Virus record (IMG/VR): IMGVR_UViG_3300025141_016375
Location: 9,895-73,894 of that record
Source: a virus
Reading direction: 5' to 3' (one strand)
Length of the DNA: 64,000 nucleotides
In this document: positions 29,949 through 63,870 of the stretch, piece by piece
Position numbering within the stretch: position 1 is the first letter of the stretch
How the letters are laid out: each line of letters opens with the position of its first letter
Notes under the pieces: model-generated
Databases searched by the model: none
What the model was told of the DNA's origin: nothing
What the model saw: the letters and a program-made list of their open reading frames with translations, nothing else
Made by a program: the position numbers and the translations under genes

Positions 29949-31742
29949 ATGCCTTATATTAAAAAACCGCTCATTAATTATACTAATAGAGAATTTGAAA
30001 CTATTAAAGCCGATTTAGTTAATTATGCGCAGAAGTATTATCCCGAAACCATGCAGGATTTCAATGAGGCTTCATTTGGTTCTTTGATGTTGGACATGGT
30101 AGCTTTAGTGGGCGATATGCTTTCCTTTTATATAGATTATCAAGCAAACGAATCATTTATTGAAACAGCCAACGAATACGAAAATGTTTTAAATCTTTCT
30201 AAACATTTTGGATATAAGTATAAGCCCAACGCCTCTTCTATGGGACAAGTGAGCTTTTTTGTACTGGTTCCAGCACTAGGAGGCTCTGTCGCCCCCAATT
30301 TAAATTTGGCGCCTATTATTCGCAAGGGCTCTCTTTTTTCTACCACAATTGGGACCCTTTTCACTTTAATGGAAGATATAAATTTTTCTCAATCTTCGGA
30401 TATTGTGGCAGGAGAAGTAAACGCAACTACTGGGGCGCCCACGAGCTATGCTATTAAAGCTCAAGGAATTGTAGTCTCTGGCGAATTACGAAGCAAAGAT
30501 TATACCATCGGCGCTTACGAAAAGTTTTTAAGGGTACAAATTGATGACAGTAATGTGACAGAAGTGGTAGCCGCCTTTGATTCCAATGGCAATAATTATT
30601 ATGAAGTAGACTATCTCACCCAAAATACCGTTTATGTGTCTGTTATCAATAATCAGTCCAATATGGATACCGTGAGAAATATTTTAAAACCTGTATCTGT
30701 GCCTCATCGCTTCGTGGTGGAGCACAATGAACTTTCTACAACTTTACAATTTGGGTTTGGCACACAAGATAATGAAGCAAAAATATTGGATCCGACCAAC
30801 ATTATCTTAAATGTTTTTGGAAAAGAACATTTTAGTGAGCCATCTTTTGACCCTACCGTGTTGATTAAGACGGATAAGTTGGGTGTTGTTCCTTCGGATA
30901 CCGTGCTAACAGTTATTTATCGTCGTAATACTACATCCAATGTCAATGCGGCCGCCAATTCTTTACGCAATACTGTTAATGCACAATTCCAGTTTCGTAA
31001 CGCCCAAACGTTGAACGCGGGATTGATGACAGGCGTACGTAATAGTTTAGAGCTTACTAACGAAAATCCGATTTTTGGGGATGTTTCGGCGATTAGCGCG
31101 GAGGAATTAAAATACCGCGCCTATGGGACATACGGCGCCCAAAATCGTGCCGTCACTAAAGAGGATTATATTACGATGATATATAATATGCCCGCTAATT
31201 TTGGTCAAGTAAAAAAAGCCACTATTGAACGCGACGTAGATTCTTTTAGCGGTAAAAATTTGAATTTATATGTTCTTTCAACAAACGATGGGGGCAAATT
31301 TGCGCCTACTAACCTCACTATTAAACAAAATTTAAAGACATGGATAAACCAATATAAAATGTTGGGCGATACTATTGATATCCTCGATGGTCGCGTGATC
31401 AACCTTGAAATAAAATTTACCGTCGTTGCCTTTGCAAATGTCAACAAATACGACGTGTTACAGCTGTGTCTCAATACTCTGACCAGCTTTTTTCAAGGCT
31501 CCTATTACGATCTTGGCGAGCCATTTAAAATTACAGATGTATATAAATTATTAAACAATATAAGCCAAGTATTAGATGTCAAAGATGTGACGGTAACACC
31601 CAAGCGTGGAGCGGGCTATTCGGATTATGCTCCTTCTTTTGACGAATTGGCCTCTGATGATGGGAGATTTTTAATGGCACCCCACGATACGGCATTTGAA
31701 ATACTGAGTCCAACCAACGATATTGATGGAGAAGTGATTTAA
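29949..31742 (+). CDS. Baseplate wedge subunit, T4 gp6 / baseplate J-like
   Basis: NYTNREFETIK.DL, LSFYIDYQANESF, LQFG.G and AQNRAVT.EDY; follows gp25. Confidence 0.88.
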   Translation: MPYIKKPLINYTNREFETIKADLVNYAQKYYPETMQDFNEASFGSLMLDMVALVGDMLSFYIDYQANESFIETANEYENVLNLSKHFGYKYKPNASSMGQVSFFVLVPALGGSVAPNLNLAPIIRKGSLFSTTIGTLFTLMEDINFSQSSDIVAGEVNATTGAPTSYAIKAQGIVVSGELRSKDYTIGAYEKFLRVQIDDSNVTEVVAAFDSNGNNYYEVDYLTQNTVYVSVINNQSNMDTVRNILKPVSVPHRFVVEHNELSTTLQFGFGTQDNEAKILDPTNIILNVFGKEHFSEPSFDPTVLIKTDKLGVVPSDTVLTVIYRRNTTSNVNAAANSLRNTVNAQFQFRNAQTLNAGLMTGVRNSLELTNENPIFGDVSAISAEELKYRAYGTYGAQNRAVTKEDYITMIYNMPANFGQVKKATIERDVDSFSGKNLNLYVLSTNDGGKFAPTNLTIKQNLKTWINQYKMLGDTIDILDGRVINLEIKFTVVAFANVNKYDVLQLCLNTLTSFFQGSYYDLGEPFKITDVYKLLNNISQVLDVKDVTVTPKRGAGYSDYAPSFDELASDDGRFLMAPHDTAFEILSPTNDIDGEVI

Positions 31743-33739
31743 TGGGAATTAAACGATGGGTTGCAAACCAAGACAATACAATTACGAATGCTTTTGCACC
31801 TAACTTGTTGACTCGCGGCGTCAGCGGCAACATGGGCCAATCCGATGTTCTAGAAGTCTTCTCTATTTTTGGACAAGCCTCATCTGCTTCTTCAGAACTA
31901 GAAAGAATATTAATTCAATTTCCAGTGTCCCAGATCTCTTCGTCTAGAGGTGCAGGCACCATTCCTGCTTCTGGTAGCGTAGATTTTTATTTAAGGATGT
32001 TCAATGCCAAGCATTCATGGACCACTCCCCGAGATTATACTTTAGATATTTGTCCCGTTTCACGCTCCTGGTGCGAAGGTTTGGGCTTGGATATGGAAGA
32101 TTATAGGGATTTAGATGCTTCTAATTGGCTCTACAGCTGCCCGGCCCCTGGCACCCAAGCATGCGCGACTATTACCATAGAAAACACCGATGGTGGCCCT
32201 GTCCCCGGCGCTAACAACCCGTTTATCAATCTAACCATCGATGCCGGAGCGGGCCCCCCTCCGGCCACCTATCAATTTCAAGGACTCCATGGCCCCTTAT
32301 GGTGGCCCAGTTCCTTTCGGATAGGCACAACGACGACAGCCATTGCCACCGATCTGGCGAATGTCATTAATGTATCAGCTAGCGACCACTTTACTGCTTC
32401 TTCAAATGGAAGTGTTGTGCGCATATGTGCGACAGGCTCTGGGGTATATGGAAATAATTATGCCGCAGTCGGCTTCCCATCAGTCGACGCCGACGCCGCC
32501 GGCAGGTGGGTGTTTGCGACGGTAACCGGCGCAGCTGCCACGGAGTATTTCTGTTCAATGGGGCCCGACATGAGTGGGCCCGCTGCCCCGGCACTCCCGG
32601 CCCTCTGTGGCGGGGCTCTCTACCCAGCGGGGAGCGCCTCTTTGGGAGGTGGAAGCGCCGCCGAGGGGTTTATTCGCTGGACAACAGAAGGCGGCGATTA
32701 TTTAAGCTCTCCATGTTTTTCTCAATACTTTGACACTGGTAATGAAAATCTAGAAGTTAACATAACTCCTCTCGTTGAAGAATGGATTAGCGGGACTGTC
32801 GCCCGGGGCACCCAGCGTGACGCCCTTCCTAATTATGGCGTCGGAATTAAATTAAGTGCCACCGACGAAGGAGATTCTTTTTCATATTATACTAAAATGT
32901 TTTTTGCCAGAGGTTCTCAATTCTTTTTTAAACGTCCAATTATTGAAGCACGTTGGAACAGCAGTATACTAGATGATCGGGGTAACTTCTTTTTAAGCTC
33001 ATCGCTTGTGCCTGCAACTGATAATTTAATGAACCTTTACCTTTATAATGTGGTAAGAGGGCAATTAACAAACATTCCTGCGGTCGGCACCGGTAAAATA
33101 CTAGTTAGTGTTTATTCTGGATCTAACGACAATTCGGCTCCTTTTGGCGCCAAATTGGAACTTCCAGCCGGTGGGGGTGTGGTGGCCGACGATGATGTGA
33201 ATATCACCGGTTCCTGGGTCGAAACAGGCGTCTATTCAGCTTCTTTTGCATATACTTCGTCAGCTATTACGACCATTTTTGATGTATGGCATAGTGCAAG
33301 TGTGGAATATCACACCGGCAGCGCCGTCACAGTAAGCACCTTTGACAGTCAAAACTTCAATTTTGACCGCCGATATGTTTCCAAAGTTATTAATTTGCGC
33401 CCCGTTTATTCCCCCGACGAAACGAGTAGATTTAGACTTTACGTTCGTGAAAAGGATTGGCAACCCACCATTTATACGGTGTCGTCCAATATCATGCCTA
33501 ATCAAATAATTTACAATGCGTATTATCAAGTGAGTAGAGTTTCCGACAATTTAAAAGTGATACCGTATGGCACGGGAAGTTCAAATCAGACCAAACTTTC
33601 TTATGATGTGAGCGGAAGTTATTTTGATTTGGACATGGCACTCTTTGATACTGACACGGTTTACTCATTAAAATTGGCTTATTTGATTAACGGTACGTAT
33701 ACAGAACAACCAGAAGAATTTAGATTTAGGGTCGAGTAA
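31742..33739 (+). CDS. Putative baseplate/virion structural protein with a Cys/Gly/Pro-rich central segment
   Basis: DNTI, RILIQF, SRSWCEG.G, W...GGDY and PIIEARW (DNRLRE-like pattern, recalled); position after gp6. Confidence 0.65.
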   Translation: MGIKRWVANQDNTITNAFAPNLLTRGVSGNMGQSDVLEVFSIFGQASSASSELERILIQFPVSQISSSRGAGTIPASGSVDFYLRMFNAKHSWTTPRDYTLDICPVSRSWCEGLGLDMEDYRDLDASNWLYSCPAPGTQACATITIENTDGGPVPGANNPFINLTIDAGAGPPPATYQFQGLHGPLWWPSSFRIGTTTTAIATDLANVINVSASDHFTASSNGSVVRICATGSGVYGNNYAAVGFPSVDADAAGRWVFATVTGAAATEYFCSMGPDMSGPAAPALPALCGGALYPAGSASLGGGSAAEGFIRWTTEGGDYLSSPCFSQYFDTGNENLEVNITPLVEEWISGTVARGTQRDALPNYGVGIKLSATDEGDSFSYYTKMFFARGSQFFFKRPIIEARWNSSILDDRGNFFLSSSLVPATDNLMNLYLYNVVRGQLTNIPAVGTGKILVSVYSGSNDNSAPFGAKLELPAGGGVVADDDVNITGSWVETGVYSASFAYTSSAITTIFDVWHSASVEYHTGSAVTVSTFDSQNFNFDRRYVSKVINLRPVYSPDETSRFRLYVREKDWQPTIYTVSSNIMPNQIIYNAYYQVSRVSDNLKVIPYGTGSSNQTKLSYDVSGSYFDLDMALFDTDTVYSLKLAYLINGTYTEQPEEFRFRVE

Positions 33740-33742
33740 TTT

Positions 33743-36700
33743 ATGTCTTTAAAAGATTTATTTAAAGAAGATGATAATCTTAGAAGTTTTGAACCCATTA
33801 CCAAAGCGGACATAGACGCTGATTTAGAGTCGTATGATTATTTAAAAGCCGTTCAAGAAAGGTCGCGCCGATTCCTCCCTTTAGAAAAGTTTGCGAAGCC
33901 CGAGACCTTTGCCAAATTTGGCTCCGCCGAGAAATATTATGAAGACTCCATTCGGCGCATATACAATACTTATCCTTATGATGGCTCTTTAAAGGAGAAA
34001 ATACAATGGGAGCTTTCCTCTTCTGTAATTGATATATTTCTTTTGGAGAACGGGTACCCGCGTACTACAGGGTATGCTACTTTTTCTTCGGCCAGCTTCG
34101 CAGCCACAGTATTAGTTAATGGCTATGGCGCCGTCCCCACTGCTTCTTACGAGTTTATTTCACTTCAAGGTGGCCCCCATAAGGGCACCGGCAAATCCCT
34201 TTATTATGATCAGTGGCAAGATACGACCACATATCGTAAAGATGCGAATATTTTGGATCGTAGCCAAAATAGAGAAAACAATTTAAAAATTGATGGTATA
34301 GATGGCAATACAGTAGAGTTTTGGCTTAAAAAGGAAGCTTTTTTGGTATTGGGAGACCCCGATTACACCAGCGAGAAAGAGGTTATAATTGATGTTTTTG
34401 TATCTGGTACCACACAAGTTGATCAGGAGTATGGGAGGTTAAGAGTAGAACTTACCGGGACCGCCGATGTAGGAGCGACTCCGTGGCTAGTCACTTTTTC
34501 CTCCGGCACCCTTAACGCAATGATGCAACAGCCCATTGGTAGAAACATTACGACTGCCTCGGTGGCGGATGGCCAATGGCATCACTATGCATTTATATTT
34601 CAAAATAATGCCGATAACCCTGGTAACGCGGTGCAGTGCGATCTTTTTATAGATGGCGCTCATAATAGCAGAGCCGTAGGAACCGGGGAGGTTTTTTATG
34701 TTAGCGGCGCCCTCGAAGCCACCGTTGGAGCGCTCGGGTCTGCCGATCCTCCCGAAACGGGCGTCACGGCACTCAACGGCGCCCTCAAGGGGTATGCCAA
34801 ACTGTCGGGGTCTCTCGATGAAGTACGTTATTGGAAAACTGCTCGGACATCAAAAAAGATTCAACAATATTGGTTTGATCAGGTTGGAGGGGGAACCAAT
34901 AGTGATCTTGCCAATACCCATTTGGGTGTTTATTATAAATTTAATGAAGGGATCACCACTAATGTCGCCATCGACGCGAATGTATTAGATTATTCCGGAC
35001 GTATTTCGAATGGAACGTGGACTGGCTATAATCCGCTTTTTTCTCGCTCAACAGGGTCTGCAATGATAGAATCTTCGGCTAGCGCGATAGAATTTAGAGA
35101 TCCCATTATTTATCCTTCTCATCTTGACGTAGTGAGCTTTTTAAATACCCAAAAGGGCATCGGAAAGGATTACGACACTACTAATGTCAACTCTCTCGTT
35201 TCCTATATGCCCACCTGGATGCTAGAAATTAATGAAACCGCGGAGGCAGATGCCAACAAGAACGTGTTAATGAATTTGTTACAGATACTTTCAAGTTATT
35301 TTGACAATGCGTCGCTTTTGATCGATAAAATCCCTTCTCTAAGTGAACCCAAATATTACACCTCGGGCACTTTTCCGCCTCCCTTTAATAAGAGGCTTTT
35401 AGAATCCCGCGGCTTTGTAGCGCCCGACATTTTTATGGATCTCAGCTTGCTTGAACAGTTTGCACAGCGGGACAATACTCTTTTATTCCAGGAGAGCGTA
35501 GAACATGTTAAAAGAACGATTTATCAAAATATCTATAATAATTTAATTTATTTATATAAATCAAAAGGCACCGAAAAATCTTTTAGAAACTTAATTAGAT
35601 GTTTTGGTATTGACGATGAAGTATTAAAATTTAACATTTATACTAAAAACAATACATTTAAAATACAAGACAACACCAAATATGTCACTAAAACAAAACA
35701 ATACGCTAATTTCAATGAAGTAGAAAATGGCGACGCAACGGTATATCAGCATACAGCGTCGGACGATACCAATGCCACTTCCTTTCTTACCATGGGCCCG
35801 GGCCTTGTGGGCGGTGATGTTCCTACTTTCAGTTCGGGCACTGCTTTTACTTTAGCAGCCGACGTAATTTTGCCAAATCATGTAACTATTGCGGAATACG
35901 CCACAGTTAAAGAAAACTATGATGGTAAAGTACAAAATCATTATCCTTTGATAGTGTCTTCATCTTTATTTGGCCTTCATGACGTAACTTCAGTTGAAAA
36001 TGTTGGAACGTGGATCAATCCGGACTGGGCGAATTTTCAAGTTTATGCTGTAAAAGAAAATAATGATAAGTTTTCAACCACAGCTAAATTTGTTTTGAGC
36101 AGCGTGCCAAGCGCTCCCGCGGGACCAATAGAGACTATATTACCTATTGAATCGCCTTTTTTTGAAGATATTTATGACGATCAAAAGTGGACTTTAGCAG
36201 TATCCGTCTTTCCAGAAAAACAGGGAGTGAACCAAGTTGGAGGAACTAGTGGTTCCGACATGGGCGTCCCAACCTCACCCGACCAATCAGATTATATAAT
36301 AAGATTTTATGGGTGTAATCATATCTCCGATATAAAATATCAAAGCTTTGAAGTTAGTGCGACGATTCCACAACAGGCTGGCGATTGGGGAGGCGCCTTC
36401 TTCTGGCACTGGCCCAACAAAAGAATATTCGCCGGCGCCCACCGCACTGATTTTAATGGAAGTCTAAGAGAGTTCTCGGATGCCAAGATATCCGCAGTCA
36501 AAGCGTGGTACGCGAATATTCCCACCTCTTCTATAGATCAGCATAACAAAAAAGCTGGGAATTATGGCGCAGCAGCCCCCACAAAAAATGCTTTTCTTTA
36601 CGAGGAAGCTTACAATTCAGTTAATATACCTGAAATAGGAACGCTCGCTCTTCACTGGGATTTTACCACTGTAAGCTCTTCCGATGCATCGGGCCAATTT

Positions 36701-39700
36701 TTTGTTGAAGACGTTACATCCGGGAGCAACACCGATAATCGTTACGGTGATTTTAGCACGGGTGTATCTCGAAGACATCCGGGCCGCGGCGATTTCTTCC
36801 AAGCTTCTTCAACAGATGCGGTTCAAAATATTGCGCGCGCCACACTTAAACAACAAGTACCTGAAGTGTTGATAGATTCTAACCTCACAAAAATCTTAAC
36901 TCAAGACGATGAGTTTTTTAATCGCGCCGCGCGTCCCATTACTTATTATTTCTCTATAGAAAAAAATCTGTTCCAAAGCATTTCTGAAGAGATGCTCGAT
37001 ATGTTTGCTTCTATTAAGTATTTAAATAATCTAATTGGGGAACCTGTAAATCTTTATCGATCCGAATACAAAGAATTGGGCAAGTTGCGCGAACTCTTTT
37101 TTGAAAAAGTTGGGAATGATTACGATTTTGATAAATATGTAGAATACTACAAGTACATTGATTACGCGATTGGCCAATATATTGAAAAACTCATTCCTGC
37201 TTCAATGTCTACTTTTCGCAAAGGGATCACAACTACAGTTGAAAACTTTGCATTAGACAGAAACAAATATGCGAATAAGTTTCCAATTATTAAAGATAAG
37301 ATGCCACCCATTCTTCAGGCCCAAGCGCTGGGAATTAATGAACTTTTATATGATTGGGAGTTTGGCCATGCGCCTTCTTCTTCTGCCGGTTTTGGGACTC
37401 CGGAGTCGGTAGCTTGTCTTTGGTGGAAAGAACGAGCCGAACGAACAGGGTCCTTATCTATTGTAAGCAGCGACAATGCCGTCAATATCGACAAGCAAAC
37501 AATGCTGGATTCTATTGTAAATGAGACAAATGCGAGCGCTCCAACGGTAAGTCAAACGAGTTCAGCTGGAACATCGATGTATTCTGGTTCCACTTATGTG
37601 ACGCGACGATTGGCGAAACCTTATAGGCTTACGAGCGATCAGTCTCCATATTACCATGGAGGATCCAATTTTTATCAAAACAAGAAATATGATATTGTTA
37701 ATGCGATGGGAGGTCTAAACCTTTTTCCGAACAATATGCTAGAAATAAGCAATGTCGAAGCTTTTGAAGAATGCACCGATGGACTAGATTTAGGGAAAAA
37801 ACGGAAATATAAATACGAGGCGGCAATAGTAAATTTAGCAGGCGCCGGAGAACAAAATTATTTTAGAGCGAAGGGCGATTTGTTTGCTCCGTTCAGCCTA
37901 TATAGTGCATCCATCGCAGGAGGATACCATGATGAAATAGCTGCACAATTTATGGTCGGCGCGGACATCACCAACTTTCATGATGATACATATGGCCCGG
38001 CCTATGAAGTACCAATGCAAGGTCCCTTTACTGAAAAATATGTTGGCGGATATCAGTATAGACACATTGATTTAAATTATAGTGGGACAGACCATCCTTT
38101 GGATACGGCCGTCACCCGTCCGGAAGGAAGGCTCGTGGAACTTAGTTCCGGCGAGATAGAGATTTTGGGCCAGTGGCTTTCGACCGACCGCGATCCCCCA
38201 GCTTGGTCTTTACGAGAGCCATTAGCCAAACGCCCCGTAAACATTGCGAACATTCTCCAAACAACCGGCTCCAGTCCAACTAAAATTGGTAACTATGAAC
38301 ACGATTATGATATTGTGCAGACTAGTGGCCGAACAATTAATAATTTGTTCTTTGTTGAAAGCGAAGGCATTGAGGTCATACCACAGACTTCACTTGTAAT
38401 ATTCTCCCCTGGCGCCACCCCTCCTGGCGCGCCCCTTGTGGATTATACTCTACCAGATCGTAGCATCAGCGGATCAAACAAATTTGTTTTTGTCAATCGC
38501 TTTTCTGCACCAGGCGGCCCTGAAGTCTCGTCTCTCGGCTTCATGGATGTAGAAGCTGCAGAGTTCTCTGTTTATAATGCGCTACCCTTTAGAAACTTAA
38601 CTGTACGATTGCCATTACAAGAATTATTAACAGATCATTGCAAACAATTTGGCTATTTCAGCGACGCTCAGAACTCTGCCAGTTACGTTTTGGCTGGAGT
38701 CGCTTATCCCGGTACCAGCGGTTCGGTCAACACAGGATCTTATTATGCAACAGCGGGATATACAGACGCTACAGCTTCTTTCCATAAAGTTAATAGAAAC
38801 ACCAGGTTACAACCATTTATAGCAAACACTGGCTCGTTCTTTAACACTCTTTGTGCATCTTTGGTTAAAGCGACACCCGACTATATAGCCAATCTGGGCA
38901 CGGCGGCCACTGACGGGTTGACCATTTGCACCTATTCTATGTGGGTCAACCCTATTGGAACTTTGTCTCCCACTTTAGACATGGCTATGAACCTAGGTGG
39001 TGCGCAACGCACTATTGATATTCGCGGCAATACTCCGGCCACACGATTCGTCCGTTTCGGCGCGGATTTTTCTACTACGGACGGTGTGTGGGACACAGAC
39101 GAGGGAAGTATTATAGTGGGGGAATGGCACAATGTTGTGGTGGTGTATGATGGCTCGCTCACCACTAATGTTCCCGTCATTTACATTAATGGCGCACCCA
39201 TGAACGTTACCACTTTTACGGAGCCGCAGGGAACATTAGTGATCTCCTATACTGCCCCCTATACTATTCTGGGGATAGACGCCAGTATAGGTGCGCTTTT
39301 TGCATTTGATGGATTTATAGATGAGGTGAGTTTGTGGAATAAAGCCCTAACTGCTGGCGAAGTACAAGAAATTTTTAATTCAACCGATGATTATTGTTAT
39401 GGGGGCCCTAGCAACCTCTTTCAACACTCAGCAGTGGCATCTTTAATAAACTGGTGGCGCATGGGCGATGAACCCGGCGATGCCCTTCCCGCGGGCCCAA
39501 TTATAGATCTCATTGGGGGCATTAATTTAACCACAATCGGAGGCGCCCCAACCCTTTCCGCTGATGTGCTCTCTGCATATTGTTATGCTATTAAGACCAA
39601 ACCCGCCTACGACAACGCTTACATACAACATCAAATCCCCCAAACAGATGTACAATACGCTTGGATTAAAGCAAGCTTAATTGAAGGATATACGGGATCT

Positions 39701-42700
39701 GCACTTTATGGATTTGAAGAGCCGAATTACAGTCTTGCAAGCATGGCCTCTACGGATCTGACGTTTTGTAGTGCGAGTGATGTGGGAAGCAATTTATTCC
39801 GCGACGGTGGTTTTGTAGAATATGGCCGCATGCTTGGAGCACAGTACGGAAACCCGGTGTGCACGGTTGTATCACACCCAGAGACTTTTTTACCAACAGA
39901 TTTTGTTGGTTTAAATTCTAATATTGTGGAACCTATAAGTTCTTCGACGAATATACTTGGATATCCCTCTCTCGTCGCCTCCTTCCATCCAGGCTGCATG
40001 GCTGAAGTAAATTATGTTAATACTACTTTTTGCGATGCGGAAGGCGCCAACGGCAACACTAACAGCCCAATGGGCCTCGCATCAGTTCTTAGCGCATTAA
40101 TTGGCCACCGCCAAGGTCCATACGGTTGGCCCACTTGGAAACAAATTAGAGGCGGGATACACCCAATTGCGCGATACCAACGAAATCATAACATTATTCA
40201 GTATATAGATTTTGTTCAAACATGGACGGTTCAGCCCTTCCAGGGGGTGTCGATGCTGATGCCAGGCGGGACGGCCAAAACAATTATTTCCACAACAGAG
40301 CCCCCCTTATCTTCAAAATATAAGCCGCTCACCTTTGTAATGCCCTCTCATTCTCCTGCTAAGTTCGAGGAAAGCTTTGCCACAGTGGCATATGGAAACG
40401 CTCTCGTTAAGTTTACCGATCATCGTACTGAATTTGTACCTTCGCCGCTTGTCGGCTCCACGGCTTTAGATCTAGATGCTAAATTGAATACGGTTGCCAC
40501 TAATACTTATTCTAACTTTGGGGCGATGAGAACTTTATTAGCCAAAAGCAATTATGCTGCAAACCCTGACGATTTTATTAAGGTTTCTTATAGTGAAACC
40601 ATTTATCCCAAAGGCCAATACACTTATTTAAGCGGATCGCGTAAAAGAACGAGTTTTACCAATACGTTTTGGCGAACACACCGTTTTGATCGCACCATTC
40701 GTGATCTGCCTAATTCTTTGAGTGATTCACTGGGCGGCGGAGTTGTGCTTATTCCCACGGCAAGCATGTGGAAATTAGACGGGCATCTAAATTTTACAGA
40801 CAATGCAGATTTTTGGACCAGCGGAAGTACCAATTTCAGAGCAGATGGCGCCGGTGAGCTACAAAATAATTATTGCTTATGGCGTAATAGTTTAGAGCCG
40901 GGTCATGTAAGCTGGGTGACCAATCCCGTGGACCCTGGAGCGTTTGTATATAATGCCGAGGGCTGCCAATTAACACCGTTGCCCCGAGCCGCCAGCGAAT
41001 ATGCGAGAAGAATACCTTATGTAGACATCAATGAAGATAACGGCCCACAAGCACGTAGCGGAAGTTACCGTCCTAATTATACGGCTGGTGGAGGCCTCGG
41101 CGAATGCAATGCTATTCCCATCCTGGGCAAACCCGCTTACTTAGCTGAATATTCTTTCCCAGATTTTGAGGGCTTTACAGGGGGCTCCACTGAATATTTT
41201 GTTTATGACACTATCATTAATGGCGATACCAAATGGACAGCAGCCGAGGAAAGCCCTTTAAATTATCAACCTTTTTATGATAGTTACGATGACTATATTG
41301 AAGATTTGTTTAGAGCTTCTAAGGACGCGACGATTGTACCTGAGTTTAGAATAAGTGAAAATATAAACTTTTACTTTAGCAATAATCCCAATATTTTCTT
41401 TGACGAAACGGGATTAAACTGGGCTCATGGCAACATCACAACGAATCAGTTGCTTACTTTGACAGGTTCGAGTTATGAGCCAAGTACGGGCAATTATGAC
41501 GACTTTTTGAAAAGGTATGTCTTCTCGGATTTCTTAGAATATTTTACAATTGTAAAAGACACCTATGAGGATGGCCGCAACAAACTTCCGCCTGGAAGTA
41601 ATCAAACGGAAGCTAAGACCGATTCGTTCGGCAACACTGTTTACGTAGAGACCTTACCTCCTCCTTTAGAAAGTACGCGTTTTAAAATTGTATGCGAAGC
41701 CGGAATCAAATTTCTTCCCTACGATGGATTTTACCCTGCCGAAAGGTGCGTTCAATTAGGAACTTTATTTTCACAGTCGGCCACGACCACGTTTGCGGGG
41801 ACAGAAGCCAATTTTAGAACTCTGATGCAGCCTTTCTTTGCGCCTGGCATTGTATATAACAGTATTAAATCGGGCCTCGCGGTTGACTATCCGATCTATA
41901 CTGCCGGTACGACTCCTCTTACGGCTGCATATAGTGCATCGACCAACACGGTGGCGTACAACATGGACGAGTTCGTCACGAACACTCTTTTATGGCAGGC
42001 CCAATTAGATGGCACGCCGTTTGATACTAGGATTCCTTTTGAGACCTTGTACGAGGCGGTTCCTCTTCCTACAACTATTTTAGATTTTGAACCAGCATGC
42101 CGTGCCCACATTGATTCTACTGCTTCTTTGAGCACCATCAATAGTAACTTTAGAGCGGCAATGGATAATTTCTTAGCAGAAAGTGTGAATACCTTTTTGG
42201 AAGGTGGAAATGTTACCCAACTTAAAAGCAATGTTTTCGTTAAAAACCTAGGGGACGGCGTTCCCATGGTCACAGTGCCTGGAAGCCCCTCCGCCACTAA
42301 AACTTATTCAATGGATGTGGTGTTAAATAATTCAACCAACATCAACAGTCTAAGTGATTTTAAGACGGCTGTGGAATTGCTTACCTATGACAGCGGCGAT
42401 CCGGCCTCGTTAGGGAGCAACCCCCAATCGTGTAGTTTAAATGTAAATTCTTCTTCCATTATCATGTATTCGCGTGCCACCACGGGATATAGTATCGATC
42501 CCCATCTTTATGGTTCATCTTTTGGCATGCCCATGACGGCGTTCACGGCACAAACTATTCATGGCTCCAATGGTCTTTTAAGTCCACAGTGTACATACGG
42601 TACATGGTACAAGCTGGCCAGTTTCGAGCCCTATACACCTCCTTATTATGACGGTTTTGCAGCAGTTAGAATCTCCGTAGAACTACCGGGAGGCGAAGCT

Positions 42701-44074: not shown

Positions 44075-44076
44075 TT

Positions 44077-45267
44077 ATGGAGTTTTTTGATAAAAAACAA
44101 GATGTGCTTGATATTAAATTAACTCGTTATGGACGCCAACTCCTTTCTCGCGGAAAATTTAAGCCAGCTTATTATAGTTTTTCGGATGATGACGTCATTT
44201 ACGATCAGCGATGGATATCGGGCACCGTTGCTCTAGAACCCCAATCCCAAGTGGAAGGGCGTATCCAGGAAGGAACACCGCGTGTTGAAACTCTCAGTTC
44301 TAAAGTAGGGGCAGAAGTCACCGTTTTTAATAGCAACAATGGTTCTCAACTTCAAAATCTTATCGACCTCTATAACATTAGTACCGATATGGCACAAATG
44401 ATAGCGGTGCAAGAGGACCCCAAGAAAGGAGGTCCAGAGGAAAAAGAGTTTCAAGAAATTTTAAATTCAATAGTTCTTGACGTGGACTTTGCCGATGCAG
44501 AAAAATTAGTACGCCATCACTTGGGGACAAAAAGATATTTTACTAATTTTGCTCCTGGTTGGAATGTAGTGTTTTATCATGGTTATATTTCTGGTTCATC
44601 TCCAACTTATTTCAAGAAAGACATCAATAAAAAAGTACCTCAAATCGACACTACCCTGAGAGATAGTTTTTCTCGATATCACGATGATCAAGATGCATTT
44701 GAGCTAAACCCGGCACTTAGGAATGTAATTGAAAAATATAATAAATATGGCAGCCTCGGAACAGTAACGGAAGAAACTGTTGGCGCCTACAGCGATGTTT
44801 TTGGGGAGGATGAGGGGATTGATTATTTAAACACCTACTATGAAAGTTTCCCTCTGCAAGAAGGCTCTGTGTTTGTGGAAAAGGATTTTCTTTTATTGTC
44901 GTTTGAGGAATCGGGGGTGGATTTTACTCACGAAAACTTTTCCTTAGAAGTATTTGAAATTGTTGAGCCTTTTGCTGAAGGGACCCCAGCGTCGGCTAGC
45001 ACCGAACAATTAAATCGTTTAATGTTTGGAGACTTGGCGGAACAAGCCACCACCACCTCTAGAATGGTGGATGCCTATTTCGACGTGGAGTTCGACACGG
45101 AAATTAATAAAATCCTAGGATGTACTTTAACGGGCAAGAAACAACTTAAAACCAAGAACATATACAATACTAATGTTTTTAATTGCGAGCCCATAGACAA
45201 CAAAGCCGAGTCTACGAGCACAGATATATACGATTTGGACCCAGTTGAAACAGAGGAGGTTTGTTGA
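44077..45267 (+). CDS. Virion structural protein; N-terminus paralogous to 52724..53713
   Basis: LDIKLTRYGRQLLSRG.F....YSFSDDDVIYD. Confidence 0.7.
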   Translation: MEFFDKKQDVLDIKLTRYGRQLLSRGKFKPAYYSFSDDDVIYDQRWISGTVALEPQSQVEGRIQEGTPRVETLSSKVGAEVTVFNSNNGSQLQNLIDLYNISTDMAQMIAVQEDPKKGGPEEKEFQEILNSIVLDVDFADAEKLVRHHLGTKRYFTNFAPGWNVVFYHGYISGSSPTYFKKDINKKVPQIDTTLRDSFSRYHDDQDAFELNPALRNVIEKYNKYGSLGTVTEETVGAYSDVFGEDEGIDYLNTYYESFPLQEGSVFVEKDFLLLSFEESGVDFTHENFSLEVFEIVEPFAEGTPASASTEQLNRLMFGDLAEQATTTSRMVDAYFDVEFDTEINKILGCTLTGKKQLKTKNIYNTNVFNCEPIDNKAESTSTDIYDLDPVETEEVC

Positions 45268-52635: not shown

Positions 52636-52699
52636 TTTTAAAATAGCAAATGAAAAAAAGTTCTAATGTTAATAAATATAATAGATTGTAAAGAATGGA

Positions 52700-52706
52700 C
52701 TAATTA
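52700..52706 (+). promoter_or_regulatory. Candidate late promoter CTAATTA
   Basis: aCTAATTAat in an AT-rich gap, 24 nt before ATG 52724, followed by AAGGAG. Confidence 0.55.
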
Positions 52707-52723
52707 ATAAAAGGAGTTAAGTT

Positions 52724-53713: not shown

Positions 53714-53728
53714 AATTAGGAGAGCATA

Positions 53729-54802
53729 ATGGCTAACACTTTTAAAACATTTTTACCCGAAGACATTGCGACCACGCGGACGCTACTTCACGAGGCAATT
53801 CCGATCACGGGAACGATTGTTTCTGGTACTTATGAAGATTTAAATATTAAAAACTTTACACACGCTATGTTTCAATCAGTGTATGATTATCCTTTTTTAA
53901 GTTCTTCGGCTAATCACATCTTTGACATAACTTGGGGCTATTCTGTTAACAGCCCTCAAAGTGCAAGTACTGGGCTTAAAGTGCAGCAAGACAAAAAGAT
54001 TAATATCTATAATCAAATGGCGCTGGTTTTAAATGAGTTGGACATCTCAGGGAATATCCGAGATTTTGATAGAGATGGGGAGATAGATGTTGATATAGAC
54101 GATGACATGCAATCCGTCTTTTTCCTTAATTTTACTCGTTTGTTGATGAAAGATGAGATAAAGAAAAATTCCTTTAGAATGACAATCTTTACAGGCTCAA
54201 CGGTACCTGTAAAACTTGGCGCTGTTGCCCTACAGCCAGTAATTGGCGATTATGGAGCAACGACTAATTACAAAATTAATTCGCCTGCGGGAGAATACGG
54301 CCTTCTCTTTACTTCGTCCCTTTTTACTGGTCACGCCACAAATCCTCCTGTGGGCCATTTATATTATCAAGCGGGCATCGCAGTTATCACTTCTTCTATT
54401 TTTACTAATCAATTTGGAGATAATGCTGCAGCGGTGGCATCCGAACCGTGGATTGGCTCCATCGGCGAAGCTTTGACTGGCGCCACCATCCCGCAATTGG
54501 CGGATGGCCTCAGATTTACTATTGACAACATCCAATTCAATAACACTACAGAGCTTAATTCAACTATTTATTTCTGCCGGGCACATAATACGGATTTTAA
54601 TTATTCTTCAAATCCAACGTATTTATCTTCTTCTCAAATTGTAGTTAAAAATAATAATCCGATGGCAAATCCGGTCTCTTATATGACTACGGTTGGGCTT
54701 TATTCTCCCGATAACGAGTTGATGGCCGTAGCGAAAGTGTCCGAACCACTTAAAAAGTCGCCCGCTAACGAGCTTACTTTACGAGTGAGACTCGATTATT
54801 AA
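53729..54802 (+). CDS. Virion structural protein (tail-collar-like C-terminus)
   Basis: FNYSSNPT...YMTTVGLY...ELMAVAKVSEPLKK...LRVRLDY. Confidence 0.7.
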   Translation: MANTFKTFLPEDIATTRTLLHEAIPITGTIVSGTYEDLNIKNFTHAMFQSVYDYPFLSSSANHIFDITWGYSVNSPQSASTGLKVQQDKKINIYNQMALVLNELDISGNIRDFDRDGEIDVDIDDDMQSVFFLNFTRLLMKDEIKKNSFRMTIFTGSTVPVKLGAVALQPVIGDYGATTNYKINSPAGEYGLLFTSSLFTGHATNPPVGHLYYQAGIAVITSSIFTNQFGDNAAAVASEPWIGSIGEALTGATIPQLADGLRFTIDNIQFNNTTELNSTIYFCRAHNTDFNYSSNPTYLSSSQIVVKNNNPMANPVSYMTTVGLYSPDNELMAVAKVSEPLKKSPANELTLRVRLDY

Positions 54803-54807
54803 AAAAA

Positions 54808-56016
54808 ATGCCCTATTATGAATTTAAACCAGAGGATTTATTTTATAATACAATCGAAACGTGGCCTACAGTACAATTTGATGTCAATATCAACACTGTT
54901 TATCTAAATAATAAAAATGAAATTACAGGTGCCCACGTTCTTAACGCCGGTTGTATTCCCACGGGGTTTATAAGCCTTTATGAATTGAATGTGGACAGGG
55001 ACTTTTCTGCACAAACCTATGATCCCAAAACTAATCCAGATGGTATACAGAGTAAAATATTTCCATTCGTAACCAAAGATGGAAGTTTTGAAGCCATTGG
55101 AAATGTATCGGTAAAAGACTACTTTAATACTTTTGAATATGGGGACGTTATCACCGGGTCGTATCCTATGTCGGCCAGTTTGATTCGCTCTGGAACCGCC
55201 CCGGGCGGACAATTTGTCATGGCACTGAGGAACACTTTAAATTATTATACGCCTGTAAGTCCTCATTATGCTTTTTCTTCGTCGATCTTTCAACGAGACT
55301 TCGGAACGGACGATGTAAATCTTTTAAACATACCTTCTATTTTTTATGGTTCCCAACTCAGAAAGGGAACGGTACGTTTAAAATTTTATATTTCGGGCAC
55401 GCTAGTGGCAGAACTTAATGATAGAGATTTTAATGGAGAGTTGATCCAAGTGGACGGCGACGCCTTTGCCACAGCGGCTTCTAATGATGTGGTTGCAGGT
55501 GTAGTTTTATATAAAGAAGGGATCATCATGTTGACTGGCAGTCGCAATCTTACCCTTGAGACATATGAATTTGGAATCGGCGCGGCACATGAGGGCCGAT
55601 GGCTCGACTTTGCGGCGGGCGCCAACGATGGAGTGGATCCAGTTACTCCAAGCGCCAGTTTCTCTGTGAACTTTGAAGGAATAAACAATGTACAAACTTT
55701 AACAATGTTTGCAAACGCTCCCAAGTCAAATTTAAATTTCTCTTCTAACCCAACCTTTTTAAATCATTCTTCTTCATTAATAACACAACCCGTAACGAGT
55801 AGTGTACAATATAAAGAATCCGAAGAGACAGAAATCTTTAATACAGTCAGTAGCTCGTACTTCAATTTTGACGAAAGATTTAAACATCAGACATTTATTA
55901 GTAAAATAGGTATATACGATTATCAAAAAAATCTTATAGCCGTCGCCAATTTGGCCACACCCATTAAAAAGAATAGTGAACGCGATTTCACTTTTAAATT
56001 AAAACTAGATCTTTAG
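54808..56016 (+). CDS. Virion structural protein, paralogue of 53729..54802
   Basis: LNFSSNPT...FISKIGIYD...LIAVANLATPIKK...FKLKLDL. Confidence 0.7.
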   Translation: MPYYEFKPEDLFYNTIETWPTVQFDVNINTVYLNNKNEITGAHVLNAGCIPTGFISLYELNVDRDFSAQTYDPKTNPDGIQSKIFPFVTKDGSFEAIGNVSVKDYFNTFEYGDVITGSYPMSASLIRSGTAPGGQFVMALRNTLNYYTPVSPHYAFSSSIFQRDFGTDDVNLLNIPSIFYGSQLRKGTVRLKFYISGTLVAELNDRDFNGELIQVDGDAFATAASNDVVAGVVLYKEGIIMLTGSRNLTLETYEFGIGAAHEGRWLDFAAGANDGVDPVTPSASFSVNFEGINNVQTLTMFANAPKSNLNFSSNPTFLNHSSSLITQPVTSSVQYKESEETEIFNTVSSSYFNFDERFKHQTFISKIGIYDYQKNLIAVANLATPIKKNSERDFTFKLKLDL

Positions 56017-56027
56017 GAAATAAAAAA

Positions 56028-57468: not shown

Positions 57469-57483
57469 ATACTGGAGGAACCA

Positions 57484-60639: not shown

Positions 60640-60640
60640 T

Positions 60641-60850
60641 GTGCCAGTATACGATTTTAAATGCAGTACATGCGAACATATTTTTGAATTAATTCAAAAG
60701 TATCTCGACCCCCACCCCTCCTGTGAAAAGTGCGGAGAACCCACAATTAAAATTATATCTAGCACCACCTTTATTTTAAAAGGGGGCGGCTGGTATAAAG
60801 ACGGATATTCTGCCGAACCCCCTGATTCTAAAAAAGTTTCAGATAAATAA
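60641..60850 (+). CDS. FmdB-family zinc-ribbon protein
   Basis: MPVYDFKCSTC...CEKCG...FILKGGGWYKDGY; GTG start after a GGAGG SD. Confidence 0.9.
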   Translation: MPVYDFKCSTCEHIFELIQKYLDPHPSCEKCGEPTIKIISSTTFILKGGGWYKDGYSAEPPDSKKVSDK

Positions 60851-60870
60851 AGATAATAAGAACAAAATGA

Positions 60871-60877
60871 CTAATTA
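60871..60877 (+). promoter_or_regulatory. Candidate late promoter CTAATTA
   Basis: aCTAATTAta, 30 nt before ATG 60901, followed by AAGGAG, where structural genes resume. Confidence 0.55.
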
Positions 60878-60900
60878 TACTGAAAAGCAAGGAGTTTATA

Positions 60901-61365
60901 ATGGCAGATCCGCAAGGTTATTTTGTAGGAACACAGGTTCCCGCAGTTGGTTTAAGAAATGTAGGTTCATATCAGGTCTCTGGTCACCCCTTTATCACTG
61001 GTTCGCTTCTCAGCACGACGCAAGAGCTACAAGTAGATTTTCCCTTTGTCACCAAAGAGTTTACAGTGGTTTCGTCAGGGAGCACAGATGGAGGCCCCAT
61101 TTTACGCGTCCACTTTAATACGAGTAGTGACGGAAATGTTATGGCAGACGGTGCAAGTGCAGGCGGTCATCATTTTGTATCGGTTGGCCCCGGCGGTGTC
61201 TCGGCAACGTTTGATGTTAAATGCACACGAGTTTTTATTACTTGTTTTTCTGGTGGTATTGAACAGGTAGCCAATAGCGATAATGGGTTTGAGCTTTTAG
61301 CATCTTTAACTAACATTCCCACCTCAAGTATGTATCCCCTGACCGGTTCGGGGTTGACGACTTAA
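60901..61365 (+). CDS. Small beta-rich putative virion protein
   Basis: AAGGAG SD; GLRNVGSYQVSG.PFITGS; Gly/Ser rich. Confidence 0.7.
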   Translation: MADPQGYFVGTQVPAVGLRNVGSYQVSGHPFITGSLLSTTQELQVDFPFVTKEFTVVSSGSTDGGPILRVHFNTSSDGNVMADGASAGGHHFVSVGPGGVSATFDVKCTRVFITCFSGGIEQVANSDNGFELLASLTNIPTSSMYPLTGSGLTT

Positions 61366-61388
61366 TATTATAAAGGAGACCGTTTTTC

Positions 61389-63071
61389 ATGACAGATTAT
61401 AAGGGCTCTCCCGCTGATCAGATTGCTGCAAGTCTCACAGCCGGTGGGCTAGTATGTTCTCCCACAGCATCGGGCTGCAGTACTGTTGCCATTGGTGCTG
61501 ATGGAAGCTCATTGGTTTTAACTCCGATGGGCGCCGGCGGTGGCGGCGGCGGCGGTGGTGGCCTCATCACCACTTATTCGAATCCGGGAAATGATAGAAT
61601 GATAACTTCGGTTAATGGCAGCACCATTAACGGCGAAGCAAATTTTACTTTCGATGGAACAGAAATGACTATAGGCGCCAGTACCGCAGCCGATATTCAT
61701 ATCACCGGGACTATGCGCATCAGCGGTACCGTTCCTAATTCCGCTAGTCTTTTCCTGACTGGCACCGGGCCTTTTCCCGCCATTACAGCAGACGATCCTT
61801 ATTTTTGCCTCTTGGCTGATGAAGATAAAGATTCTGCTGCTATTATTGGCCAAGCTTATATGGGCTATGGCGGCTTTCTTGATCGTGCAGTTTTTGGCCA
61901 TAAAGATTCTCAAGCTGTGCCTACAGCTTTTGCTTTTATGCAAAAAGGCTTAACAGGAGGTGCCATTGAAGCGGGCTCTGTTTCTATTAATGCGCCTTCA
62001 ACGGGCTATTTATCGTTTGCTATTTCTTCTGCCCATAAAGCACGCTTTTCGGTTATGAATTTGGGCGGAGTCGCAGCAGCCCAACTTGCGGATCCTCCCG
62101 CACCGGGTAATAATCCGCAGTCTGGGTTTGCAATTGGCACCAATTATTTTCCTAGTTACCCCCTAGACGTTTCAGGCGGAATACGCGTTGGTGTATTTAC
62201 CGATAAAATGCAAACGAATGTGGATGGCGGGGGGGGTTTTGTCCCCTCGATGCACTATATCACCGGCACCATCTTACATACAGGCTCTTATATTTTACGG
62301 GGGGCCCCGGGCGGCTTCGGCACCGCCGGAGCAGACGCAGGCCTCTTGATTGTTTCAGCTTCTGGCCCATGCGCCACGGGCATTGATGTTTCGGGGTCCA
62401 TTACAGCATCCTGCGGAATCTCTGCTAGTTTTTTCCAGGGTGATGGATCACAATTAGCAAATCTTCCAGGCGGTGGGGCTTCTGCGGGCAGCGATACTCA
62501 AATCCAATATAGCATCGGCGGCGGAAACTTTGGAGCCAATTCTAATCTTACATATGAATACGGAGCAACTCCAAACTTCCTCTCTTTAACCGGTACGTTG
62601 CTGCACACTGGTTCTTACGAATTAAGCGGCGGATTAAAGATATTATCAAGTAGCATGGGTGAATACCCCGCCAACGGCTGCGCCTTCGACCAACTAAATG
62701 GTGGCCATAAATTACCTTATATAGAACTTCTAAACGACGGCTTCGGCCCCACCAATAATTATTATACGGCTTCTTTAGATTATTATTATATGGTTCTGAA
62801 AGATAATACTGGCAATCCGGCCCCAACCGGGATTCGAGTGGCGTTGCCTGACGCGGCCTCCGCAGGTGCGGGTAGGACTTTGGTCATTAAAAGAGGGATG
62901 GATACTGCCAATGTGGCTGGGTGCGCTGGCCCCGCATTGTGTTCGGACTTGGTTTATCATCCTCAATCTCACAATTACCTCGATTTGAGCCAAGACGATA
63001 AGCCCCTCAACGGCTCATTTGAGTCTGTTACGGTAATGTCGGATGGCAACGACGGGTGGTGGACAGTATAA
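61389..63071 (+). CDS. Putative tail-fibre/decoration protein
   Basis: GEANFTFDG, FQGDGSQLANL, AGSDTQIQY..GGNFGA..NL and LPDA..AG.GRTLVIK...SDG..WW are common fibre motifs; poly-Gly linker. Confidence 0.75.
   Translation: MTDYKGSPADQIAASLTAGGLVCSPTASGCSTVAIGADGSSLVLTPMGAGGGGGGGGGLITTYSNPGNDRMITSVNGSTINGEANFTFDGTEMTIGASTAADIHITGTMRISGTVPNSASLFLTGTGPFPAITADDPYFCLLADEDKDSAAIIGQAYMGYGGFLDRAVFGHKDSQAVPTAFAFMQKGLTGGAIEAGSVSINAPSTGYLSFAISSAHKARFSVMNLGGVAAAQLADPPAPGNNPQSGFAIGTNYFPSYPLDVSGGIRVGVFTDKMQTNVDGGGGFVPSMHYITGTILHTGSYILRGAPGGFGTAGADAGLLIVSASGPCATGIDVSGSITASCGISASFFQGDGSQLANLPGGGASAGSDTQIQYSIGGGNFGANSNLTYEYGATPNFLSLTGTLLHTGSYELSGGLKILSSSMGEYPANGCAFDQLNGGHKLPYIELLNDGFGPTNNYYTASLDYYYMVLKDNTGNPAPTGIRVALPDAASAGAGRTLVIKRGMDTANVAGCAGPALCSDLVYHPQSHNYLDLSQDDKPLNGSFESVTVMSDGNDGWWTV
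61536..61562 (+). repeat. (GGC/GGT)9 tract encoding a poly-Gly linker
   Basis: ggcggtggcggcggcggcggtggtggc. Confidence 0.9.
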
Positions 63072-63099
63072 AATGGAACACAAAGGAGAAACAGTTTAA

Positions 63100-63870
63100 A
63101 TGTCATACAAATCGGTATCCGGAGCTGTATATAAGCTAGGCCCTACCCATTGGTCGAATGCCACTACCGCGTCAGTTGCATTCATCAATCCTGATTTGGG
63201 ATCTTATCTTTTCAATAGTGAGGTGGGGGCAAGTTCCTCCTTCACTATTTCCGGCAGCGTACAAATTACTGGCTCCGCCGCCGGGGGGGGGCCTGATGGT
63301 ACCCTATTTACGATTGAAGCAGGCGGATCCGGACGCGACGTCGACGGCAAAGTCGCTTTACACGTCCAAGCTAGCGGCGGCTTTGGCCGAGTTGGAATTG
63401 GTAAATCGAGCCCTAAAGTTGAATTGGATGTGGGATACGACAGCGTAAGCGATCCCAATAATTTCGCTCCGGACAGCGGCGGCGGCGAAGTGGTATTTTT
63501 TGCATCTTCATCGCACCCGACCCTCACCGCAGGTGCTCTCTATTATATGAACGATACTAGCAGTTGGCAAAGCGCCTCGGCCCATTCAACAGGCTCCGGC
63601 GCAGATCGCTTGCTTGCTATCTCCTTGGGAACTTCTCCTCAAGACCATGGGATGCTAATTCGAGGCTGGTTTAACGCCACTACTTTCTTTACAGGCGCAT
63701 TTAGCTCAGGTGCAGCCGTCTACATTCACTCAGGAACAGCCGGTTACATGAACGGCTCGCCACCCACGGGAGAGAGTAGTTATTCCCGTATTGTCGGCTA
63801 CGGCAGTGCCAATAGCAACTTAATTTATTTCAATCCTAGTTCAAACTGGATTGAACTCACCGGAAGTTAA
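63100..63870 (+). CDS. Putative tail-fibre/decoration protein
   Basis: GRVGIGKSSP...LDV fibre motif; AAAGGAG SD; Gly/Ser rich. Confidence 0.7.
   Translation: MSYKSVSGAVYKLGPTHWSNATTASVAFINPDLGSYLFNSEVGASSSFTISGSVQITGSAAGGGPDGTLFTIEAGGSGRDVDGKVALHVQASGGFGRVGIGKSSPKVELDVGYDSVSDPNNFAPDSGGGEVVFFASSSHPTLTAGALYYMNDTSSWQSASAHSTGSGADRLLAISLGTSPQDHGMLIRGWFNATTFFTGAFSSGAAVYIHSGTAGYMNGSPPTGESSYSRIVGYGSANSNLIYFNPSSNWIELTGS

Follow-up and report, generated by a model that had tools for sequence, protein, structure and literature searches.

A hydrophobic-[S/T]-[G/A/S]-S motif in distal-tail proteins of T4-related aquatic phages, a candidate acceptor for a phage-encoded glycan island

A window of 64,000 nucleotides from an uncultured marine T4-like phage (IMG/VR virus record IMGVR_UViG_3300025141_016375, positions 9,895 to 73,894) encodes, downstream of a T4-type baseplate, several proteins in which short motifs of the form [ST][GAS][ST] are strongly over-represented, and it carries in its left part a 13-kb island of sugar genes that begins with two glycosyltransferases (GTs) of family GT4. 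In one sub-lineage of related viruses the motif has been lost from three unrelated proteins in a coordinated way, and the sugar island of that sub-lineage is reduced. The motif may serve the phage's own glycosylation system as its acceptor or as a part of what that system recognizes, a reading that we adopt tentatively and hold at somewhat less than an even chance. Open reading frames (ORFs) are named here by their first position in the window, and related sequences by our own handles (G002, L034 and the like). The window fits into the RM378-like clade of T4-related myoviruses by its gp6/gp25 baseplate, its orthologue of the first GT4 enzyme (GT4 #1) and its baseplate-primase-SbcCD synteny. 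Among cultured phages, its closest relatives are immuto of Flavobacterium and Mel-JY01 of Microcystis (gp6 about 30% identical), and Rhodothermus phage RM378 and the uncultured 484-kb phage LR756508 belong to the same clade.

Over-representation of the motif

Occurrences of [ST][GAS][ST] were counted in each protein and compared with those in 1000 composition-preserving shuffles, and in a local control residues were shuffled only inside blocks of 15 or 30 residues. By global as well as local shuffles, the motif is 2-4 times over-represented in 31742, 33743, 53729, 54808 and 61389 (z 3.6-6.6); the enrichment is weaker in 60901 and 44077 and not significant in 63100 (Table 1). As the enrichment persists under block shuffling, local composition is not its cause; with the local shuffles 60901 reaches z 3.3-4.5, and 44077 drops to z 1.5-2.0. 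In all enzymes of the window the motif is flat or slightly depleted in the shuffle test, and no enrichment was found in gp6 (0 sites against 2.4 expected), 45261 (5 against 5.9) or 49312 (5 against 4.1). A sequence-only reading of this stretch had claimed that such tripeptides, usually following a hydrophobic residue and encoded by varying codons, saturate a subset of virion proteins with different folds and are scarce in gp6, 45261, 49312, a giant protein of 2962 amino acids (aa) and all enzymes. The example sites that it quoted are all present in the sequences and the proteins that it called poor are flat or slightly depleted; among those that it called rich, 31742, 33743, 53729, 54808 and 61389 are clearly so, 60901 less strongly, and 63100 did not stand out from its shuffles.

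The order of the residues matters, since [ST][GA][ST] is over-represented 2.9 times (z 10) and every permutation of the same classes is flat. Ser is favoured at the third position (3.5 times, against 1.25 times for Thr), and the residue before the motif is hydrophobic or His (4.2 times, z 13). When the motif is written in the stringent form hydrophobic-[S/T]-[G/A/S]-S, it exceeds expectation about 7 times, with 31 occurrences against 4.4 expected in the window, 21 against 2.9 in the related genome G002 and 40 against 5.2 in immuto; the corresponding values are 17 against 2.3 for Mel-JY01 and 9 against 0.7 for RM378. Codon usage at the motif is free, the 122 sites being encoded by 110 distinct 9-mers in which all six Ser codons occur, and the two best-sampled carrier families, those of 31742 and 54808, which belong to one virion module, have no detectable common domain (hhalign probability 0.1). 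On codons, preceding residue and unrelated folds the initial description therefore stands.

Distribution among relatives and in T4

In phage T4 the proteins gp5-gp12, gp34-gp37 and other structural proteins have motif z values of about 0, the highest being 2.4 for gp18 and 2.1 for gp48. A generic feature of tail-fibre beta-structure, which was our first reading, was rejected after this control. In G002 (138 kb, 114 ORFs) the enriched proteins are the orthologues of the giant 33743 (z 6.6), of 54808 (z 5.3) and of 53729 (z 3.2) and two small ORFs (z 3.3 and 4.9), and the gp7-like orthologue has z 1.7. Motif-rich distal-tail proteins were also detected in immuto (z up to 6.6), Mel-JY01 (5.2) and RM378 (about 4). 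RM378 had appeared as a discordant case in a partial scan, and this was withdrawn when the full scan found its enriched proteins. Both the motif and the glycosyltransferases occur in the lineage of the window, in G002, G011, G012 and G013, and in immuto, Mel-JY01 and RM378; T4 has neither.

Small phages with fibre modules common to the immuto spike were considered as cases of the motif without glycosyltransferases and were uninformative: the fibre of P8625 is enriched for the bare tripeptide only, without the hydrophobic prefix, and that of Pelagibacter phage HTVC111P is not enriched. In the latter phage (MN698245.1, L053:24562-27878) a GT9-like 'putative glycosyl transferase' of the heptosyltransferase family (weak Pfam match, E 6e-4) lies directly downstream of the tail-fibre gene, whose product has a Peptidase_S74 chaperone domain; this is possibly another pairing of fibre and glycosyltransferase, though with a fibre that shows no motif enrichment.

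Coordinated loss of the motif in one sub-lineage

Among the homologues of 31742, three with low scores (L034, L035 and L037) belong to a single sub-lineage, whose longest contig, G006, measures 79 kb. The giant of G006 has 25 sites against 24 expected (z 0.2), compared with z values of 5.5-9.9 for 18 other orthologues, that of the window included. Only 1 of 12 conserved sites is kept in the gp7-like protein of G006 and 3 of 9 in the 54808-like protein. The substitutions lead to unrelated residues (ISG to DEG, LTGSW to LNNTD, VSSSF to VPSEQ) and no replacement motif appears in G006. The loss extends to the whole sub-lineage, all eight of its contigs being motif-poor. The cassette of sugar genes downstream of the GT4 pair is shrunk in G006 to an ORF of 194 aa and a sulfotransferase, and in the main lineage all 55 loci with enough flank have a cassette of at least 10 kb. 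No further short-island lineage was found among these 55 loci or among the relatives of the G006 GT4 genes.

Divergence alone does not explain the loss, because equally divergent relatives are motif-rich. G011, G012 and G013 are as far from the window as G006 (55-59% identity in the sigma factor) and have long cassettes and strong enrichment, and the giant of L039, which is 29% identical to that of the window, keeps 10 of 26 conserved columns and yet has 71 sites against 24 expected, so that motif density is maintained despite positional turnover. Fold constraints can hardly account for a loss that affects three unrelated proteins together; it suggests a shared trans-acting factor. As G006 keeps the GT4 pair but has lost the motif, the pair alone is not sufficient to maintain it, and the earlier proposal lacks support as far as it makes the GT4 pair the reader of the tripeptide. 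No single island gene was found that is present in all motif-rich genomes and absent from G006, because the cassette is hypervariable.

The trans-acting factor might be something other than a glycosyltransferase, namely an assembly chaperone or cementing partner, an enzyme for another Ser modification (phosphorylation, acylation or direct sulfation), or a host-surface ligand. The coordinated loss demands a common factor and does not by itself define which, the GT4 pair has outlasted the motif in G006, and the motif stays constant beside a hypervariable tailoring cassette, all of which would agree with such a reader. On the other hand, no gene for a kinase, chaperone or partner was seen to vary together with the motif, and at the syntenic locus the reduced sugar cassette is the sole difference in gene content that was seen, so that we judge a reader of this kind improbable.

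One protein of the motif-poor sub-lineage forms an exception. A product of 330-340 aa, encoded directly upstream of the first giant (for example L067:1-945 and L063:3-992), has two stringent sites in every member of the sub-lineage (2 against 0.2 expected, z 4-5).

Position of the sites and evidence against a glycan acceptor

The motif may instead be purely structural, marking the ends of beta-strands, tight turns of hairpins (Gly-Ser, type II'-like) and short hexad strand-turn repeats in clade-specific beta-sandwich and fibre domains; the small middle residue would then permit close packing, the hydroxyls would cap strands or line subunit interfaces, and the island would have some other target. 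The position of the sites suits this explanation. In the families of 31742 and 54808 about 10 positionally conserved sites per protein account for the enrichment, and when the conserved columns are masked the remainder is near neutral (ratio 1.2-1.3). There are 8-14 near-invariant sites per protein, and at each of them the identity of the residue, Ser or Thr, is fixed. DSSP assignments on AlphaFold2 (AF2) models, which are of moderate confidence only (predicted local distance difference test, pLDDT, 62 and 66), put most of the sites at the ends of strands or in turns of the beta-sandwich domains. In the model of 54808, the two residues S196-G197 make the turn of a hairpin, T243-G-S comes after a strand and S282-A-S at the start of one, and in that of 31742 most sites lie at strand ends and three in mid-strand. 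Pairs of motifs spaced by 6 residues occur 13 times against 0.4 expected (z 20) and hold 22 of the 122 sites (18%). An example of a hexad run is ITGTMR-ISGTVP-NSASLF-LTGTGP in 61389. The sites are otherwise isolated, the longest tandem arrangement being 3-4 hexads.

The pattern hydrophobic-[S/T]-G-[S/T]-hydrophobic at strand/turn junctions indeed resembles generic beta-hairpin and Ig-like patterns with Gly-Ser/Thr type II' turns. However, such patterns leave several observations unexplained. Gly-dependent turns cannot account for SAS and SSS, to which about half of the sites belong; the motif is common to unrelated folds and absent from the T4 tail analogues; near-invariant sites were replaced simultaneously in three proteins of G006, whereas equally divergent lineages keep them; and L039 holds the density of the motif at different positions. 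We rate a purely structural role as a strong rival, somewhat less probable than the acceptor reading.

The fixed positions and the hexad runs look structural and weigh against a glycan acceptor, and so do a number of further observations. Proteins outside the set of carriers show no avoidance of the motif, the ratio of observed to expected sites being 1.03 in the window, 1.02 in G002 and 1.01 in T4. In G002 no ORF is enriched outside the baseplate-distal set and one island ORF, capsid- and sheath-type proteins included. All co-occurrences of motif and glycosyltransferases fall within one clade and are confounded by common descent, so that co-occurrence alone proves little, and LR756508, which has a different island, is motif-poor in the region that was scanned. 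The loss in G006 is a single clear event on a contig estimated to be 44% complete, which retains the synteny of the window, an intact GT4 pair, the GT2 domain and a sulfotransferase. In literature searches no glycan was seen in any member of the clade, and neither proteomic nor glycan data for it were found. We know of no GT4 enzyme that reads such a motif. A review (PMC12645811) lists no bacterial O-glycosylation system with a motif of this type. The claim that the tripeptide is the acceptor for the glycan made by the island is partly supported: the coordinated loss alongside a reduced island speaks for it, sites of structural appearance and the lack of avoidance in other proteins against it.

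Table 1. Motif-carrying proteins and sugar-island genes of the window (sites: [ST][GAS][ST] observed vs expected)
Feature	Coordinates	Strand	Description	Sites (z)
Motif carrier 1	31742..33739	+	665 aa, gp7 position; C-terminal half tandem immunoglobulin-like (Ig-like) beta-sandwiches	18 vs 6.5 (4.7)
Motif carrier 2	33743..44074	+	3443-aa giant distal-tail protein; Laminin_G_3, Pfam PF13385	51 vs 21.9 (6.6)
Weak carrier	44077..45267	+	396 aa	4 vs 1.3 (2.5)
Motif carrier 3	53729..54802	+	357 aa	8 vs 2.3 (3.8)
Motif carrier 4	54808..56016	+	402 aa; beta-sandwich core	10 vs 2.4 (5.2)
Motif carrier 5	60901..61365	+	154 aa	6 vs 2.2 (2.7)
Motif carrier 6	61389..63071	+	560-aa fibre-like protein with hexad runs	15 vs 6.3 (3.6)
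Non-significant candidate	63100..63870	+	Ser/Gly-rich, 256 aa	10 vs 5.9 (1.8)
PD-(D/E)XK nuclease	1686..2468	+	Pfam PF12705, E 2e-18; conserved left neighbour of GT4 pair	
GT4 #1	2459..3748	+	Pfam Glycos_transf_1 and GT4-conflict; island core, clade hallmark	
GT4 #2-GT2 fusion	3745..5766	+	Pfam Glycos_transf_1 (residues 188-314), Glycos_transf_2 (residues 487-584); island core	
Hypervariable sugar-tailoring cassette	5763..15923	+	Pfam matches	

The motif-carrying proteins

In 36 homologues of 31742 from IMG/VR, motif z values are mostly 3-5.9 and 12-14 motif columns are conserved by position; Foldseek matches of its AF2 model (pLDDT 62) are Ig-like. The family of the giant 33743 has 26-37 conserved motif columns and an additional lineage-specific excess, and lineage-specific inserts of the giant retain the stringent form (12 against 3.7 expected). 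The protein 53729 is a paralogue of 54808 (BLASTP, 25% identity, E 3e-7). The family of 54808 is virus-only, marine and very abundant, with more than 4000 homologues, Tara Oceans sequences among them. In 62 homologues of 54808 the median z is 4.7 and 9-11 motif columns are near-invariant; no PDB match to 54808 was found by fold or by sequence, and no solved homologue was found for the families of 31742 and 54808. Searches of Pfam, PHROGs, PDB (sequence and profile), Foldseek and the ESM Atlas yielded no functional name for the carriers, the only assignments being Laminin_G_3 in the giant and the Ig-like fold in 31742. The fibre-like protein 61389 aligns to the metagenomic proteins P0002 and P0004, the latter carrying PF06598 (Chlorovirus glycoprotein repeat). 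It also has, in residues 49-58 and 60-100, a run of ten glycines and modules that are common to metagenomic proteins ('TTYSN..DR.ITSV..STI.GEANFTFDG' and 'SAS.F.GDGS.L.N').

A second giant of 2962 aa (20601-29489), encoded upstream of gp25, is motif-poor or slightly depleted, with 5 sites against 8.5-10.6 expected in the window, and its relatives are motif-poor as well (L034, 1 against 4.5; G011, 4 against 5.9). In this it differs from the 3443-aa giant downstream of gp6, which fits an internal (tape-measure or hub-like) location of the 2962-aa protein.

Conserved core and variable cassette of the sugar island

The island combines a conserved core with a variable cassette. In a tblastn matrix, only the two GT4 domains and the PD-(D/E)XK nuclease are common between lineages, and the downstream cassette is hypervariable. 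The EX7E motif of GT4 #1 is invariant, and so is that of GT4 #2 (E285...E293) in seven orthologues; the GT4 domain of GT4 #2 is conserved in G002, G006, G011-G013, immuto and Mel-JY01. Among 50,697 phage records, full-length orthologues of GT4 #1 (at least 89% of the query) were found only in immuto, Mel-JY01, LR756508 and RM378, at 27-35% identity, besides one weak partial match in MT835496 (20.5% identity, E 1e-7); IMG/VR contains at least 576 relatives. Among solved structures, chlorovirus B736L matches GT4 #1 best (3oy2, E 1e-6), and the match to Gtf1 (4pqg) reaches only E 1.5e-3. The cassette of the window encodes a GT2, methyltransferases, Glyco_trans_1_2, a GNAT protein, a sulfotransferase, a DegT aminotransferase, a GDP-mannose 4,6-dehydratase, a HAD protein and an APS kinase, almost none of which is common to G002, G011, G012, immuto or Mel-JY01. 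The order PD-(D/E)XK nuclease, GT4, GT4, GT2, methyltransferase is kept in the window, immuto and Mel-JY01. A core of nuclease and GT4 pair with a hypervariable cassette behind it is present in the lineage of the window and in immuto, Mel-JY01 and RM378.

The nuclease is found at the equivalent place in immuto, Mel-JY01 and LR756508 and has tblastn matches in G002, G006, G012 and G013. It always lies directly upstream of the GT4 gene or genes (immuto L055:4816-5757, Mel-JY01 L056:3932-4828, LR756508 L073:7256-8266), and this holds also for the jumbo phage LR756508 with its otherwise different island. That island has a single GT4 and encodes a cytidylyltransferase, a GT29 sialyltransferase-like protein and GT25 (L073:11626-15654), an enzyme set that suggests a nonulosonic-acid-type glycan in a phage. 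GT4 #1 (2459-3748; L074-L159) is better conserved than structural proteins, its best 80 IMG/VR relatives being 61-72% identical compared with 37-68% for the gp7-like protein; an 'auxiliary' gene would not normally be so conserved, which suggests that its role is essential.

The island could also glycosylate a target outside the virion, either phage DNA or, for superinfection exclusion, precursors of the host envelope, and its link with the motif would then be a phylogenetic coincidence. A hypervariable sugar cassette is typically seen at loci that follow the surface glycans of the host, the nuclease always adjoins the GT4 genes, and the co-occurrences do not reach beyond one clade. Conversely, the glycosyltransferase core is conserved over phages of Bacteroidota, of Cyanobacteria and of a Rhodothermus host, that is, of three host phyla, which argues for a phage-intrinsic acceptor. 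The DNA of immuto, as analysed by liquid chromatography-mass spectrometry, contained dA, dC, dT and fdPreQ1 and no glycosylated nucleoside (bioRxiv 10.1101/2023.04.13.536721), which weakens DNA modification as an alternative. Coincidence also fails to explain why the motif was lost in a coordinated way alongside the reduction of the cassette, and a non-virion target therefore seems to us quite improbable.

Two ORFs, each at the distal end of its island, are themselves enriched for the motif. In G002 this is G002:C1:107214-108077 (-), encoding 287 aa with 4 sites against 0.6 expected (z 4.9), and in G012 it is L173:17155-18021 (+), encoding 288 aa with 5 sites against 1.0 (z 4.1). They could represent an island-encoded carrier or substrate, or be due to chance.

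Proposed pathway and comparison with known systems

If the virion proteins are glycosylated, the pathway might be organized as follows. Baseplate-distal tail proteins would display hydrophobic-[S/T]-[G/A/S]-S as a signal that is recognized in trans, and most likely the cytoplasmic enzymes of the phage's own island would attach O-glycans there. The two conserved GT4 enzymes, predicted to be catalytically intact, would form the invariable core, and the hypervariable genes downstream of them would build a lineage-specific glycan, in the present case with perosamine-type, methylated and sulfated components. The putative acceptor sites would lie in turns and at the ends of strands within folded beta-sandwich domains. 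Extended to the whole clade, which is abundant in marine and freshwater habitats, this would mean sequon-directed O-glycosylation of virions with an active GT4 pair as core, an O-antigen-like diversifying cassette and a 'glyco-serotype' for each lineage on the host-recognition apparatus, a wider picture that we put forward with reserve as well short of evenly probable. If true, it would give the first defined O-glycosylation sequon for a phage, and globally abundant aquatic myoviruses would sugar-coat their host-recognition machinery with lineage-specific glycans, which would bear on host range, on resistance to proteases and decoys, and on the purpose of the unexplained 'LPS-like' (lipopolysaccharide-like) islands in marine phages. 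The cultured phages immuto, Mel-JY01 and RM378 make the idea of a sequon directly testable. If the motif is structural instead, it would be a minor curiosity of one set of proteins.

To our knowledge, glycosylation of phage virions is documented only for mycobacteriophages and without a defined sequon. In these actinobacteriophage siphoviruses, phage-encoded glycosyltransferases O-glycosylate the virion (Freeman et al., 2023, Cell Host Microbe, as reported in PMC12619734 and PMC11256854); in these accounts the glycans decorate the C-terminal ends of the capsid and tail-tube subunits, and a tripeptide sequon is not specified. The window likewise encodes several glycosyltransferases (GT4, the GT4-GT2 fusion, GT2 and Glyco_trans_1_2), and as in the mycobacteriophages described there, these cytoplasmic enzymes are proposed to decorate the phage's own structural proteins. 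In contrast to the mycobacteriophage case, the candidate acceptors of these T4-like marine myoviruses are internal sites in folded distal-tail proteins, and capsid- and tube-type proteins are not motif-enriched, as seen in G002. A glycan coat over the exposed virion surface, as envisaged by the sequence-only reading, is at variance with the few baseplate-distal orthologues that are enriched in G002; because the capsid and the sheath lack the enrichment, a coat over the entire outside of the virion is not indicated.

The same reading had drawn a parallel with streptococcal GtfA/GtfB. The phage enzymes resemble that system in being an adjoining pair of GT4-type proteins, and the sites in presenting Ser in S-[A/G/S]-S-like contexts. 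The analogy fails on the defining features: GtfB is non-catalytic whereas both phage GT4s keep EX7E, and the substrates of GtfA/GtfB are long, low-complexity, disordered serine-rich repeats whereas the phage sites are isolated in folded beta domains, no serine-rich repeat domain being present in the phage carriers. The autotransporter heptosyltransferases Aah and TibC, which are GT9-like, transfer heptose to beta-helix repeats of AIDA-I and TibA, that is, to bacterial adhesins. With their cytoplasmic O-glycosylation of many Ser residues in the strand-short loop-strand context of a beta-rich surface protein, they may offer the closest mechanistic analogy for the strand-end sites; no homology to Aah or TibC was found here. 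Chloroviruses, too, encode a host-independent glycosylation machinery, which includes B736L (PDB 3oy2), and the chlorovirus Vp260-type repeat PF06598 occurs in a relative of the fibre protein 61389. Chlorovirus capsid glycans are N-linked. The similarity of GT4 #1 to the chlorovirus enzyme is weak, and the host of chloroviruses is eukaryotic.

Genome context of the window

The window represents 64 kb of a 73.9-kb IMG/VR virus fragment with an estimated completeness of 41%, and every gene is on the + strand. Its genes include those for PhoH, the PD-(D/E)XK nuclease, the sugar island and a gp55-like late sigma factor. The baseplate genes gp25 (29531) and gp6 (29949) precede the large uncharacterised proteins, and a primase and an SbcCD-like nuclease are followed by three further fibre-like genes. 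A late-promoter-type pattern, RCTAWTTA, is not over-represented in the window (11 occurrences against 14 expected) and does not occur inside the sugar island, so that there is no evidence of co-regulation. The sequences ACTAATTA or GCTAATTA are found at 29499-29506, 52699-52706 and 60870-60877, 25-32 nucleotides upstream of the late genes 29531, 52724 and 60901.

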